From the IMG/VR virus record IMGVR_UViG_2913147268_000005: 64,000 nucleotides of DNA. The stretch is one strand, 5' to 3'. Every line of letters begins with the position of its first letter. Within the stretch, counting starts at the first letter, position 1. Source of the DNA: a virus. Lineage: Duplodnaviria; Heunggongvirae; Uroviricota; Caudoviricetes. The position numbers are program-made. Positions 3,001-9,000 of this stretch are shown here, one piece after another.

Positions 3001-6000
3001 CGCCAGCACATCCACAATGACGCGCATTACGCCAGCCTGATGGCGGTTATTCGTGAAAAGGAAGAAACACTGAAACAACGCGTGATCCGCGCGCTGGCGG
3101 TTTTTTCGGGTTACGGGCGGGTGATGGTTGTCGGTGGAGGGGCGGAGATTGTGGCACCCGCTATCCGCGAAGTCTGCGGAGTTAATGCGACTTTCATCGC
3201 GGACGGGGTGCCACAGTTTGCTCTGGTTAATGGGCTGTACGCAATGGACAAGGAGTAAACCAATGACGACACCAACCAGACGGATAAGTTTCTATCTGAA
3301 GCCCGCCGCCGTCAAGAGTGAACAGGAGGCGTGCAATTACCTCGATAGCCTGCCAGCCTCCGAACGCAGCCGCGCGCAACGCGCGGCCTTTCTGGCTGGG
3401 CTAGCGCTCATAAAGCGCAACCCAGCATTTGCCTACTGGATGGCCGAATGGCCAGAGGACAACCTCCCCTTCAATACCGTTAGCATCAAGGAAACATACC
3501 AGGATAATCAGCCTAGCGGAGTTGAATGCAATTTTTATAAAATAAAAAAGAATATTCAGACCTTATTCCCAGAATAATCTGATAATTGTATGTGAACTAA
3601 TAAAATACAGACCAACACATCATTCTGGCACCCTTGCTAACAGGGTGCCAATGTTTCAAATCATGATGAAATTGCCGAAGTTTTTTTATCGTGCTGAAGT
3701 ACCGCAAATGCCATTAAAACCTCAAGAGAATAGCGGCGATAATACTTAACAAAACCATAATAAAATACTCGGGATGCAGCAATACAAAACAAGAGAAGAA
3801 AACAAAAAGGTAACAGTCTGATATTTATATCTATTAAAAAGGATAGAAGGAGCAGGAACATAAGCAACCAGACTGAAGCGAGAAAAACAAATGTAATGTT
3901 TCTACAAAAACCATACAAAGCAACATAGTTTTGCATTTTCACCTGATGATTTTTAGAATGTTCATACACATAATGATAAGCAAGGCGAAAAAGATCGCCC
4001 CTCAAGCCCTTACGTCGATATAGCGTAGATACAGAAAAAACATTTATATAACCATCTCGTATTTGCGGCCAAAAGACTTTAATAAGTATAGAATGCAGTG
4101 TGGTTTTATGATGTTCTGCTTTATCAAAAGCTGATACAGGAAATAAAAAAACTCCACGAATAAAATTAACTATACTGAACTTAGTATTATGTCGTTTTAT
4201 TTTCAGGGAGCTTCTTTTAGAAAACAGATAAATTGAAGGATACCCAAGTTTACTGTTCATGTATTTTTCAATTAAACAGGATGATAGAATAGATATGAAG
4301 TGACCTGAAATATATGATAGAACGATTAATACCACATATATAAATACACTTATTATTTCTTTATATTTCAGGATATGGTTAAGAATACCTTCTATATAAA
4401 CAGGGTTAATTTCAATAGAAAACAAAAAAAGGATAAACAGGAATAACCCACCTGGAATTAGATAGCCCAAAAAGTCATAAAATGAAAACGGATTCTGTGT
4501 CACACTTCCCCCTGTGTTACTTGTAAATTAAAGGGTAAAACATTATTTGTTTTTCCGTAAAGGATTAGCTTTCCATCTTCTTACTAACCATTCGAATTCT
4601 TGATATGTAGTATCCGAATTAATGCTTTCTCTGATTGCTTTAATTAATGGCTCGGCAATATCATATGTCTCTACAACTGTTGTGTAAGATGTTCTTTTTA
4701 TCATTTTTTCATCATAAATACCTTCACGAATACTTACAGCAACTCGCTCGTAAAAATTTAAAATATATTGAAATTTTCGACGCTCGGCCATTTCTTCATC
4801 TGTTATTATGCAACCATCACAAGGAAAAACATAAGAACGAAATGATTTGCCTGAACGATGCACTTGTTTCAGGGTATGCAATGACTCTATATATTGCATA
4901 TCTTGCCGACTCTCAAAAAGAAAGTTGGCCGTTTGAGTTTTTTTTGCGGTACGCACATTGTAGATAATGGTTCCAATGGCAACCAAAACGCCAAGCAGAA
5001 CAATAGCATTGCTGATGATTTGTAGTGTTATTGGGTTCATCCTATTTCATCCATAAAAAAGGCGGGGAGCAAATCCCCGCCTCATTAGAGGTCAACGTAG
5101 CTTAGAAACCATCAAATTCATCATACATTTTTTTCATATCAACCCCCTCATAGAAATCATAACCACGTTTTGTGGTTTTTGTGACGTATAAACTACATCA
5201 AAGGCAAGCCACGGTCAAATATATAGGCATGCTTACCTGCACAAAAGTGCACAAATTTGCACAATTTTTTTGAACGACTTTTTACCCTTCCGGCCCGCAT
5301 GGCGGCTGGATCCGTCAAGGATCCGTGCGTGCACAAAAAAACGCGCTTTTTCTGCGCGCAGGTGACGGGGGAACAGCCCGCGTTTCAGGGGGTAAATAGC
5401 ATTCCCTGAACGATGTCGCAGAGACACAACAGAATGGCCATATTTCTCACGCTGAGCATGAAAAAGGCGTGAGGGCTTTTGATTTGATGGGGTGAAAGGT
5501 AAGGCCGTCAAAATCGCACTGAGGCAGCGAGAACATGCAGTCAACGCGGTGGAATTGCGTAAGAGTCTGACCGTCGATGGTGGCGATAAACTGGAAGGCG
5601 TCGTGAAATTATCTGATTGATACAGGAGCTGGAGAGCCGGGGCATAAATTTTTTATGCCCCGGCGAAGCAGCAGACAAGCGAAGCGCGTCAGCGATACGG
5701 CACCTTGCCGACCATACTTCATAAGTGCAAAATACGAGCAAAGAAATCAATGGAGGCTGTCTTATGGTCATTAATTACAAGCAGTTAAGAGAAAAACGGG
5801 AGCAGGTAAAGGAGAGCTTTCGCCGCAATGAAGATCTGACCCCGCTTGTACGCCTTGCCCAGGGCATTGTTGATGCTTATGAAATCTCGCTGGAGCTGCC
5901 ATCACAGACCTGGACAGATAGCGACGGTAATCGCCAGCATTACGTTTCATGCGGACTGGAAGCAGCCGAAGGATTTCGCAGAATGCCTTTATCCCAGATC

Positions 6001-9000
6001 CCTGCCGCTACCCCCAAAGCACGGGGCAGCAATGATGAGCGAAAACTGACTTTTAGTATTGAAACGGTGGTTGACGACACACCTGGCGAAGTCGCGTTCG
6101 TGCACACTCCTGTTTCGATCGCAATGTATAACGATGAAATACAGGTTCGCGTTAATAATAATATCGTGCCACTTAAAGAAGGTAATTCACCCTACACCAC
6201 CGTTTGTGAAGCCATTCAATATTACGTTCTCTCTGAAATTGATAATCTCAAGCCTGACGGCACCCAGAAAATGGTTCAACTCTGGTAAAAAGGACAGCCC
6301 CATCACGGGGCTGTTTTTTCATCAAGAAGAGCATAAGAGTTAAAACGGATCACCTCTTCGCCAAGCCAGTCATTGATGTGCTTCATAGCCTCCATAACGG
6401 GCATCAGCTCGTTAATTGCGTAAACCCGCGCTGCCTTCTCCACATCGCCAAACGCACTTTTTTCGCCCGGCATCGCCCCCATCAGTTGCGGCGGAACGCG
6501 GTGCGCAGCCAGCACATCATCACGGGATGCCGCCTTAACATTCATGAATTCATCTTTTGCGGTGATCTGCTGGAACGGCAAAATTTGCACCCCCTCTTTG
6601 CCCCCGTTGGGCGCATGAATGAGCACGTTTTTAAACGCACCACCACCACGTGCCCCCTGTAGCGTTTCTTTCAGGGAGTCCATGCTTTCGCGGTTTACCT
6701 GCGCTGCACCGATGTAGATGATGCACCCGGCGTGGGATCCGTTGTCGTAGTACAGTTTTCTGAACATGTCCGCCGAATGAGAAAGGCTGGCCGAGAGTAA
6801 TGCGCCAAGATATTCCGGCATGCCGTAGATTTCCTGGTTAATATCCGGATTCATCAGGTGGCACACTTTGCCAGGACGAAACTGAAACGCGTCCTTGCCA
6901 TCCTGCACATACCACCATGATTCAAGATCGCTTCCGCGTCGCATGTATTTCGCCAGGGCGTGCCGTAATTTAAGCGGTTCGCCGAGCATATTGCTTCGAA
7001 GCTCAAGGAATGCGTTACCGAACACAAACCAGTCCAGCGCCAGCGCCGAGAAATCCTGCCGGGAAAGCAGCGGGTGCGGGATGTAGCAACCGAGTAATAC
7101 ATTGCGCTTAAAGTAAAGCGCAGACTGATGCCAGGACGTTTGCCGGGCTGCTCTTGCCAGACCGTACCAGTCCACCGGGGTTTCATACCACCGCCCGTTA
7201 TCAGCACAGTACATATTGTCCAGCAGGTCATGCCCGGTCAGGCGATAAGGACCATCAAATGTGAATGCACTGAGCGATGATTCTTTCCTGAGCGCATCAG
7301 CGAGATCAATGCGTGAACTCATGCGCACTTTTTTATTTTTTCTGCTCATCAGAACTCCATAACCATGAAACGCTCGTTTTCTCCTTCGCCGCCAATTGGT
7401 TCGTTAATGACAGCAAGCATGGTTGCCCACGCAAGGTCGCCGTGGCTGATCCCCCTCGCGCGGTCCGTTTCGTAAGTGATAAAGCCGCCCGGTGTTTTCA
7501 CCTTACGCACGGCGTTAAAGGCCGCGACCAGCTCGCGTTCGGCGCGATCGTATTCCCACCGCCCGGCACGCATTATTTGCAGCATTTTCAGTACCAGCGA
7601 CCGTTTTGATGACAGCGTGAAGGTGTACGGAATAGCAGCAGGGAAAAACCGCTTCACTATCTGATAAACAGCCTCCCCGTTCCCGCCCGTCACATCAATG
7701 CCGATGTGTTCCACGTTGTAGCGACACGTGAACTCTTCAATGACTCTGGCCTGTTCTTCAAACTCCAGCCCCTGAACGCGTCGCGTCTCCACCGTTCGAA
7801 AACGGCCGCCAGGAACAGCCGGAGGAACCACCACGGACACAGCGCCGCTGTCGCCGTTGCCACTACTGCCGTTTGCGTCATACCCAATCCATACCGGACG
7901 ATTCCCCATCGGGCGGGGAGCAAAAGGTTTCCAGTCTTTCCAGTCGTCGTATCCGTCAACACCGCAGCCAATCAGGATATTCAGGTTAAATGCCGATTCC
8001 CCTTCGCGGACAAACTCACACATATAGAGATTGAGGAACTCGTCTTCGGTGTTTTCATCACGAATTTCGTCGATATCGGTGTGTTTCCAGCCGTGATTAA
8101 CCACATCTTCCAGCGTGACAATTTGCCGCCACGTCCGGTCAGGGCAGATAAGCCCATTATGCAGCGTTTTCCAGTCCACAGAAAAACGCTGGCGTTTATG
8201 CGAGGCCTTTTTCTCGTTCCAGCGGTCGCCGTTCCAGTAGGCGTATGCCTCGTGCGTTTCGGTGGATGGCGTGGAGAAGTAGGTGCGCCGCAGTCCGCTG
8301 AGGGTTGCCATAGCGCCAGCCACCTTGCGCAGTTCAGCAAAGCGACTGACCCAGAAAAATTCATCAAAATAAAAATTGCCCGTATAGGACTGTGCCGACG
8401 CAGCAGAAGTGCCGAGAAAATGCAGCTCTGCGCCGTTGGAGAGGATGATTTTATCGCCCCCTTTCAGCTCCACATCAACTTCAGCCGCGGCCTTCTGAAT
8501 AATGCTTTTAAACTGGAACGCCTGACGACGCGACGCAGACAAAAAAATCTGGTTACGCTGGTAAGGTTGCGCCACATCGTCACGCAGCGCCATCAGCAGT
8601 GCTTCCTGTGCAAAATACCAGGTCGCCCCAATCTGTCGGGATTTCAGGATCATCCTGTTACGTATCCCGGCTTCCCTGCAAAGGGTCAGGGAGTCAAACC
8701 AGCCCCGCTGATGCCACTCCAGCCTGCTGATGATTTTTTCCCGCAGTGCGGCAATCTGTTCCGGCGTGAAATGATTTTTGAGTTTTTTCGCCCGGCCTTT
8801 CTTTCCTGCGGCCATCACATCCGGCTGGCCATCATGCAGCTTTTTAAGCTGCCGGGTCAGCAGGTCTATTTCCTTAAAGTCACCGCCTGTTTTATTCTGT
8901 TTTTCAGTAAGCTGGATGAGGCGCGCATCGATGGACTGCGTGACACGCTGCACGGGTGGCGTTTCATCCCACTGGTCACGTTTTTTCCACGCATAAATCG

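Follow-up and report, generated by a model that had tools for sequence, protein, structure and literature searches.

Morons, a concept of Hendrix and co-workers, are promoter–gene–terminator cassettes that lie between conserved genes of lambdoid phages, and expression from the repressed prophage is part of their usual definition. In the P2 family, the gpA–gpQ interval has been described as an antiviral hotspot, although partition systems, toxins and other cargo unrelated to defence also occur in it (Rousset et al., 2022; PMC9122126). [quoted passage not shown] A machine-learning defence signal has been reported for 15–32% of the P2 genes of unknown function, and six of eight previously untested P4 loci gave protection (PMC13586616). 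Here, we analysed ORF174, a gene located between gene A and the portal gene Q of a prophage within a 64,000-nucleotide stretch of viral DNA (the window; IMG/VR record IMGVR_UViG_2913147268_000005). We are highly confident that ORF174 is carried as moron cargo in the cos-proximal gpA–gpQ hotspot of a P88-like prophage, in which it occupies the cosL–Q slot.

The phage is P88-like (Xuanwuvirus, P2 family) and not P2. Its prophage is truncated in the window, with ORF174 intact. Gene A (33–2222) forms the left border of the A–Q interval, and gene Q (6303–7349, minus strand) is 98% identical to its counterpart in P88, 75% to that of a Salmonella relative and 45% to that of P2. In P2, Q ends at position 187, only ~170 bp from the 19-nt cosL, and ORF174 is an extra gene relative to P2, as proposed by an earlier, sequence-only reading of the locus. 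The same reading had called an extra gene at this place unusual, which does not hold for a P88-like phage with cargo in a described hotspot: a survey of 5426 complete E. coli genomes found the cassette in 397 (~7%), a count that includes ST131 and is inflated by its clonal spread. Carriers make up about a third of the genomes with this cos type (n = 1142).

ORF174 (WP_000236495; UniProt A0A0C5EXS4) extends on the plus strand from an ATG at 5764 to a TAA at 6288 and encodes 174 amino acids. As originally noted, it has a Shine–Dalgarno sequence of its own, GGAGG at 5752–5756, spaced 7 nt from the ATG; a GGAG likewise lies upstream of each homologue examined. A longer, 187-residue form starting from GTG 5725 appeared in the ORF listing and was rejected, as all homologues start at the equivalent of the ATG. 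Their N-termini invariably read MVINY or MTITY, and we therefore place the start at ATG 5764. Comparison with two 95%-identical alleles revealed 21–22 synonymous and 7 non-synonymous changes (dN/dS ~0.08), indicating that ORF174 is a real gene under purifying selection. The reading of ORF174 as a spurious ORF or pseudogene remnant, in favour of which we found nothing except the missing annotation, is refuted by this ratio together with full-length homologues down to 25% identity, the conserved Shine–Dalgarno sequence and a confident structure model (pLDDT 80–81), and its probability is negligible. The base composition of the gene (GC 47.4%, GC3 47%) is lower in GC than that of A, Q, P and N (GC 53–57%, GC3 59–69%). 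Its product is acidic (pI 5.0) and predicted to be cytoplasmic and soluble; neither a signal peptide or membrane segment nor residues suggesting catalysis were found in it.

A bidirectional intrinsic terminator (6289–6319, both strands) is common to ORF174 on the plus strand and the Q–P operon on the minus strand. Its stem is formed by ACAGCCCC (6294–6301) and GGGGCTGT (6307–6314), with an A-run and a T-run on the flanks. The predicted folding energies are –22.2 kcal/mol on the plus strand (z = –4.4) and –19.0 kcal/mol on the minus strand (z = –3.7), values that none of 200 shuffled sequences equalled, and a terminator scan called the 6289–6319 hairpin on the minus strand. The strong shared terminator of the sequence-only reading is thus confirmed for the hairpin at 6294–6314. 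ORF174 and Q are convergent and separated by only 14 bp; the Q stop codon (6303–6305) falls within the terminator loop and the stem encodes the last codons of Q. A terminator-like hairpin was also found 3′ of the ORF174 homologues in all six other contexts examined, and two Serratia loci (L015 and L020) have an additional terminator upstream of the homologue.

Upstream of ORF174 lies a candidate σ70-like promoter, TTGCCG-N17-CAAAAT (5705–5733, plus strand; predicted start near 5740). It scored 8/12, which is under the threshold of the promoter scan, and was not called. The two hexamers and their 17-nt distance are conserved across five lineages (60–96% protein identity), whose spacer sequences differ. 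Reading the upstream sequence by eye, we saw neither a LexA box nor TGT-N12-ACA, the Ogr-type late-promoter signature of P2. With its own Shine–Dalgarno sequence, the terminator common with Q–P and a conserved, candidate promoter-like element, ORF174 has the makings of the separate transcription unit that had been suggested for it. It would be transcribed from TTGCCG-N17-CAAAAT independently of its neighbours, also in the lysogen.

Comparison with P88 delimits this unit as an indel module (5693–6328, plus strand) that contains the candidate promoter, the Shine–Dalgarno sequence, ORF174 with its terminator and the final five codons of Q. The module places ~636 bp where P88 has ~22 bp, and its borders are sharp. 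P88, P88_4B11, Chuche, 520873 and others lack it, with both flanks 93–98% identical. The cassette supplies the terminator of the Q–P operon and the last five codons of Q, swapping the C-terminus of the portal protein from LLD-TQPTS in P88 to LLD-EKTAP. Neither a target-site duplication nor a leftover Q 3′ end was detected above chance around the cassette. We propose that the cassette, consisting of a candidate promoter, Shine–Dalgarno sequence, one gene and terminator, was inserted between cos and the 3′ end of Q. The presence/absence polymorphism, the terminator of its own and the deviant base composition are all features of a moron.

A perfect palindrome had been reported with 12-bp arms at 5636–5663. 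The palindrome is indeed present, with 13-nt arms (5636–5648 and 5652–5664; 100% complementary, 3-nt loop) and an end at 5664. It folds with –31.6 kcal/mol (z = –7.7), and neither of its sides bears a U-tract. In the ORF174-free P88, the palindrome is located ~50 bp past the Q stop codon, and because of this position it is probably the ancestral hairpin that ended the Q operon. The non-coding DNA that separates cos from the palindrome (5381–5635) is 93–96% conserved within P88-like phages. An Rfam search of 5000–6400 returned nothing meaningful, with no family match in 5381–5635.

The sequence-only reading had been unable to position a cos site. Once relatives were compared, a putative cos cleavage core, GCGCAGGTGACGGGGGAACAGCCC (5356–5379), stood out as a block of identity shared by different genera. 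A GC hairpin (5341–5359) comes before it, a layout also seen in P2 cos; by analogy with P2, the putative cohesive end would be at ~5361–5379. The putative site and the annotated P2 cos have in common a GTGCA motif, an A-rich stretch, the GC hairpin and GGYGA.G.GGGGAA.AGC. Two virion-derived assemblies have gaps of 5 and 7 nt exactly at the putative core. On the gene A side, TGCACAA repeats at 5238, 5248 and 5258 (in 10-bp phase), with a fourth at 5330 (5238–5336 overall), are kept in relatives from Salmonella, Trabulsiella and Enterobacter phages although their flanks diverge. Analogous GTGCAT motifs lie at similar distances from the annotated P2 cos, and the TGCACAA repeats may be binding sites for terminase or a host factor. 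The alignment with P2 that had been suggested gave a mixed result: when the P2 cos junction was aligned locally to positions 5200–5500 of the window, the P2 cohesive end fell on 5356–5379, but the score of 27 is no better than that of shuffled sequences (25 ± 4). We therefore base the placement of cos on conservation and layout rather than on the P2 alignment score. A search for a P4-like satellite with the same cos core gave a single isolated match, which was another P2-like prophage.

With cos at ~5356–5379, ORF174 lies between cosL and Q. Its location is that of gpA–gpQ hotspot cargo: it lies between A and Q, beside cos, where the gene content varies. The genes left of cos vary among ORF174 carriers, indicating that the cassette is independent of the neighbouring cargo. 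Table S5 of the hotspot study names WP_000236495, which is the exact ORF174 protein (PMC9122126). In that study, the protein is absent from the tested systems and present in supplementary file 6 only.

ORF174 is not an orphan, as had been thought, but a member of phrog_5091. It matches this family (PHROGs v4) over its full length (E = 1.4e-67; residues 1–168 aligned with profile positions 1–164 of 164), and an exhaustive search recovered 89 relatives (cluster representatives at 50% identity). About 70 of these are distant, full-length proteins of 155–175 residues, with identities down to 25%, and phrog_5091 was matched by each of the 31 relatives that were aligned. Scans of ORF174 against Pfam and NCBIfam gave no match, the sole Pfam line being Complex1_LYR at E = 0.17; for the 31 relatives, Pfam returned scattered single matches only. 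None of the PADLOC-DB 2.0 defence models matched ORF174 at E ≤ 1. A literature search with the ORF174 accessions and phrog_5091 found no paper.

The predicted fold consists of two N-terminal helices, an antiparallel β-sheet and a C-terminal helix (AlphaFold; two concordant models with pLDDT 80 and 81). The structure search that had been recommended retrieved no match for either model: Foldseek E-values were no better than 0.22 and 0.78 in the PDB and 0.045 in BFVD, and every TM-score was below 0.3. Several NTF2-like entries occurred among the Foldseek noise and provide no evidence for such a fold. Designed helical-repeat proteins (5cwb and others), found in a PDB sequence search with E-values of 1e-7 to 1e-10, were rejected as homologues because their scores sum over repeats with i-Evalues of 2–35 each; these matches disappeared with a deeper profile.

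Relatives of ORF174 sit in accessory slots of unrelated temperate phages. A search for related loci with a narrow alignment found only three. The distant homologues span several contexts. In Trabulsiella, the homologue directly follows gene A, on the opposite side of cos. In Serratia, Klebsiella and phage CharmingMan, it lies between antiterminator Q and the lysis genes; in Cronobacter and one metagenome contig, between the lysis genes and terminase; and in Xenorhabdus, among tail genes. The CharmingMan homologue adjoins a tellurite-resistance-like gene and TciB.

This distribution bears on the possibility that ORF174 assists the lytic growth of its own phage, for example by modulating packaging at cos, the assembly of heads or the timing of lysis. 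In five P2-like lineages its neighbours are cos and the portal and terminase genes, and the lambdoid homologues are near lysis or terminase genes. However, ORF174 is missing from about two thirds of the prophages with the same cos region and a 98%-identical Q, and the homologue is found on the opposite side of cos in Trabulsiella and within the tail genes in Xenorhabdus. It is convergent with Q–P and outside that operon, and the lack of a visible TGT-N12-ACA also argues against a role in the lytic cycle, which we regard as quite improbable. Profile searches (Pfam, PHROG, NCBIfam) did not relate ORF174 to Q, P, O, N, M, L or other virion or packaging families; homology of this kind would have overturned the original reading. 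ORF174 is missing from both P2 and P88, and it belongs neither to the virion nor to the packaging machinery.

Our best guess, offered tentatively, is that the prophage expresses ORF174 as an exclusion or defence factor that acts as a single protein. P2 Tin is an exclusion protein that binds a component of the incoming phage. The soluble, acidic and seemingly non-enzymatic ORF174 product might act in phage–phage conflict and, if so, would most likely bind a component of an incoming phage in the manner of Tin. Against a defence role stand the lack of matches in PADLOC, Pfam and NCBIfam, the lack of a fold match in the PDB or BFVD, the absence of catalytic-looking residues and the low score of the candidate promoter. 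The homologues in the late transcript of lambdoid phages fit a lytic as well as a lysogenic function, and non-defence cargo is also found in the gpA–gpQ hotspot (PMC9122126).

Some of these properties would also suit an anti-defence protein that blocks the immunity of the host or of a rival prophage for the benefit of its own phage. Many anti-defence proteins are small, acidic and soluble and lack enzymatic motifs, like ORF174, which is moreover located near one end of the virion DNA with a candidate promoter of its own and evolves fast (63% identity where Q has 75%). This explanation is nonetheless unlikely: very few such genes are recognised in P2-like phages (PMC13586616), the lambdoid homologues follow the late antiterminator, too late for classical early counter-defence, and no solved anti-defence protein matches the structure model.

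We give a similarly low probability to a role in lysogenic conversion or host fitness that has nothing to do with phages, for instance in stress tolerance or virulence. The layout is that of a classic moron, lambdoid slots hold such genes, the neighbours of the CharmingMan homologue point in this direction, and clinical E. coli, ST131 among them, commonly carry ORF174, although clonal spread inflates these counts. The gene is also kept intact in the truncated prophage of the window, but this says little because the neighbouring phage genes are equally intact. The product lacks a signal peptide, a membrane segment and a recognisable domain, which speaks against this role.

Taken as a whole, the statement that ORF174 is both a moron-cassette payload in the hotspot and a defence or exclusion factor falls somewhat short of an even chance. 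A broader proposal is possible but less probable than that: phrog_5091 may be a new single-protein family in phage–phage conflict (exclusion/defence or counter-defence) with a fold unseen in the PDB and BFVD, carried on a promoter-to-terminator cassette that moves among P2-like, lambdoid and contractile-tail prophages of Enterobacterales, and in P88-like phages would occupy a second, portal-side cargo slot, supplying the Q–P terminator and the last Q codons.

As the hotspot is already known and catalogued, ORF174 changes little in the general picture; its cassette is a clean, well-delimited example of a moron in it. The comparison of relatives places cos of the P88-like phages, and the presence of cargo on both sides of cos matters for hotspot boundaries set from gpA and gpQ alone. 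Because ORF174 is common, a single gene, easily cloned with its own signals and from an uncharacterised family with a fold unmatched in the PDB and BFVD, it could be included at little cost in screens for defence or anti-defence activity.

Set against known systems, ORF174 shows no difference from phrog_5091 and is a plain member of this uncharacterised family. ORF1–4 of phiRSY1, between cosL and the Q homologue, occupy the same insertion slot (PMC5694545); their payload, a Vgr-like protein and others, differs from ORF174, which is convergent with Q and has a terminator common with it. Like tin and old of P2, which serve in lysogenic conversion and exclusion, ORF174 is non-essential A-to-Q cargo that varies among close relatives (NC_001895; PMC9122126). 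Both P2 genes are unrelated to virion genes, as is ORF174, and separately transcribed, as predicted for ORF174; tin and old lie on the gene A side of cos, ORF174 lies on the Q side, and the two share no sequence similarity. Lambdoid morons are expressed from the repressed prophage, and ORF174 is expected to be expressed in the lysogen. It resembles them in being a single gene of deviant GC content that is present in some relatives and absent from others and has its own terminator and a candidate promoter, and its distant homologues occupy the very slots of lambdoid morons, from the Q antiterminator to lysis and from lysis to terminase.

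The window begins inside a P2-family prophage that is closest to P88-like phages (genus Xuanwuvirus) rather than to P2; its portal gene Q is 98% identical to that of P88 and only 45% to that of P2. The replication gene A (33–2222) is followed directly at its 3' end by a ParM/ParR-type partition module (2299–3577), an arrangement shared by roughly one in four P2-like phages (Rousset et al., 2022; PMC9122126), and then by two minus-strand genes of low GC (32–35%), which are the true cargo on the side of cos that faces gene A. One encodes a 280-aa protein with several membrane spans (3661–4503; phrog_12528; weak PADLOC match to Csx27, E = 1e-5), the other a DUF4760 protein (4543–5040; phrog_2284); the pair appears in Table S5 of the same study, apparently not among the tested systems. 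After about 720 bp with no convincing gene come ORF174, which encodes a 174-aa protein (5764–6288, plus strand), Q, convergent with it (6303–7349), the terminase gene P (7349–9100), and then O, N and M. The P2-like prophage is truncated: collinearity with P88-type phages stops near 14002, ahead of a DUF1737+SASA esterase ORF (14055–15518) in which the GenBank 'phage' records 705R2 and 569R5 terminate. Minus-strand lambdoid genes for tape measure (15903–19145), portal (22137–24722), capsid/protease (24934–26871) and TerL (26935–28596) follow, and no P2 tail genes were seen between 12000 and 29000.

Every element that the sequence-only reading had described around ORF174 (gene, Shine–Dalgarno sequence, shared terminator and palindrome) is present. 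GGAGG (5752–5756) lies 7 nt ahead of the ATG at 5764, which is taken as the start in preference to an upstream GTG because all homologues begin MVINY or MTITY. The stop codons of ORF174 and Q are 14 bp apart and share a terminator (stem 6294–6301/6307–6314, flanked by A and T runs) with folding energies of −22.2 and −19.0 kcal/mol on the plus and minus strands, equalled by no shuffled sequence; its loop contains the Q stop codon and its stem the codons for the last Q residues. The upstream palindrome is perfect, with arms of 13 nt (5636–5648/5652–5664) instead of the 12 first reported, and folds at −31.6 kcal/mol (z = −7.7) without a U-tract. Two alleles with 95% DNA identity differ by 21–22 synonymous and 7 non-synonymous changes (dN/dS 0.08). 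ORF174 is a real gene, and a spurious ORF was excluded.

Comparison with P88-like phages defined the borders of the insertion. P88, P88_4B11, Chuche, 520873 and others are 93–96% identical to the window at 5238–5692 and again from about 6329; between these flanks they have about 22 bp, versus 636 bp in the window. The right border falls inside Q, which ends LLD-EKTAP in the window and LLD-TQPTS in P88, so the cassette supplies both a terminator of its own and the final five codons of the portal gene. It has 47% GC, versus 53–57% in core genes. A candidate promoter upstream of ORF174 (TTGCCG, 5705–5710; 17-nt spacer; CAAAAT, 5728–5733) scored only 8 out of 12 and was not called in a promoter scan. 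Both hexamers and their spacing are kept in five lineages (60–96% protein identity) while the spacer sequence varies, a pattern that would be expected of a working promoter. In every homologue examined, GGAG precedes the start codon and a terminator-like hairpin follows the stop codon; two Serratia loci (L015 and L020) have an additional terminator upstream.

The element GCGCAGGTGACGGGGGAACAG (5356–5376) is nearly unchanged in relatives with diverged flanks, namely those from Salmonella and Trabulsiella, Enterobacter phage phiT5282H and another divergent E. coli prophage. The sequence around GCGCAGGTGACGGGGGAACAG resembles the annotated P2 cos, with a GTGCA motif, an A-rich stretch, a GC hairpin and then GGYGA.G.GGGGAA.AGC. 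This conservation and layout give good support for cos at GCGCAGGTGACGGGGGAACAG, where the sequence-only reading could position no site; we infer the placement, since the raw alignment score of the region against P2 cos was not above chance. The virion-derived assemblies of Chuche and P88_4B11 have gaps of 7 and 5 nt exactly within GCGCAGGTGACGGGGGAACAG, as an assembly artefact at cohesive ends might produce. TGCACAA occurs three times in 10-bp phase (5238–5264) and once more just before the cos hairpin (5330–5336), and these repeats are conserved together with GCGCAGGTGACGGGGGAACAG in the Salmonella and Trabulsiella relatives and in the Enterobacter phage. They may be sites for the terminase small subunit; in P2, GTGCAT motifs occupy comparable positions. 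The roughly 250 bp from cos to the palindrome (5381–5635) are 93–96% conserved in P88-like phages, not in more distant relatives, and contain no convincing ORF or Rfam match; the P88 annotation places 42- and 47-aa ORFs in the matching region. With cos at GCGCAGGTGACGGGGGAACAG, ORF174 would lie between the left cohesive end and Q, and the same order of cos, ORF and Q is found in Salmonella and two further lineages.

The cassette is present in 397 of 5426 complete E. coli genomes, a count raised by clonal ST131, and is always chromosomal and next to the portal gene. Since 1142 genomes have a cos region of the window's type, roughly one-third of such prophages carry it, and the extra gene, first described as unusual, is not so for the P88-like group. 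Identical copies occur on two plasmid-filed records, NZ_MK439959.1 (48515–49036; 228 kb) and CP054248.1 (523380–523901; 542 kb), which could reflect a prophage in a plasmid or misassembly. Cargo on the far side of cos varies between carriers: DUF4760 plus membrane protein, ClpX-like zinc-finger genes, an HTH-peptidase M78 gene, a YafO toxin, or a DUF3800 gene; in other carriers there is a short hypothetical gene, or no cargo gene is annotated. ORF174 is therefore a stand-alone unit.

Nor is ORF174 an orphan, as had been proposed. Its protein matches phrog_5091, a family of unknown function, end to end (E = 1.4e-67); all 31 aligned relatives also match the family. A word-indexed search reached no further than close relatives in E. 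coli, Salmonella (60–63%) and Trabulsiella (46%). An exhaustive profile search gave 89 cluster representatives, of which about 70 are full-length (155–175 aa, 25–34% identity). In Trabulsiella the homologue is on the opposite side of cos, directly 3' of gene A, and HicB and Phd/Fic come next. Distant homologues lie between late antiterminator and lysis genes (Serratia, Klebsiella and the isolated phage CharmingMan) or between lysis genes and terminase (Cronobacter and a metagenome contig), and one in Xenorhabdus separates tail tube/chaperone genes from an 835-aa ORF lacking a Pfam match, possibly the tape measure. We take these positions to be recognised accessory (moron) slots. HicA/HicB modules adjoin or lie near homologues at L007 (8001–9369), L015 and L020 (7242–8474) and L016 (5681–8489). 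The prophage layout is the same in L015 and L020, which effectively leaves three contexts, and the proximity may only reflect common moron slots. A helper role in the phage's own lytic cycle, one of the rival readings of ORF174, is weakened because the gene is missing from two-thirds of the phages that have this cos and portal and because its relatives occur far from cos.

The protein is acidic (pI 5.0) and, from its sequence, soluble. The motifs kept in the family (AY..SL.LPS.TW.D..G....YV, F.I.TV.DD.P.GG and VC..IK) suggest no catalytic centre. Two AlphaFold models, built from 11 and 31 aligned sequences (pLDDT 80 and 81; pTM 0.73 and 0.71), agree on two N-terminal helices, an antiparallel sheet and a C-terminal helix. 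Foldseek found no match to the models in PDB or BFVD, and Pfam, NCBIfam and PADLOC gave none; designed helical-repeat proteins were rejected, their score being an artefact of summing over repeats.

The gpA–gpQ interval adjoining cos is a hotspot of antiviral systems, and the ORF174 protein is absent from those tested there (Rousset et al., 2022; PMC9122126). A machine-learning defence signal was reported for 15–32% of P2 proteins of unknown function, and six of eight previously untested P4 loci protected against phages (PMC13586616). Because of this known content and these base rates, we tentatively favour an exclusion or defence protein expressed from the prophage, which would act by binding rather than catalysis; an anti-defence protein, a host-fitness factor and the lytic-cycle helper mentioned above are the competing readings. 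The sequence-only reading stands as an observation and in part as an interpretation, shorn of 'orphan' and 'unusual for this phage group'. ORF174 very probably forms an autonomous accessory cassette within an already known hotspot.
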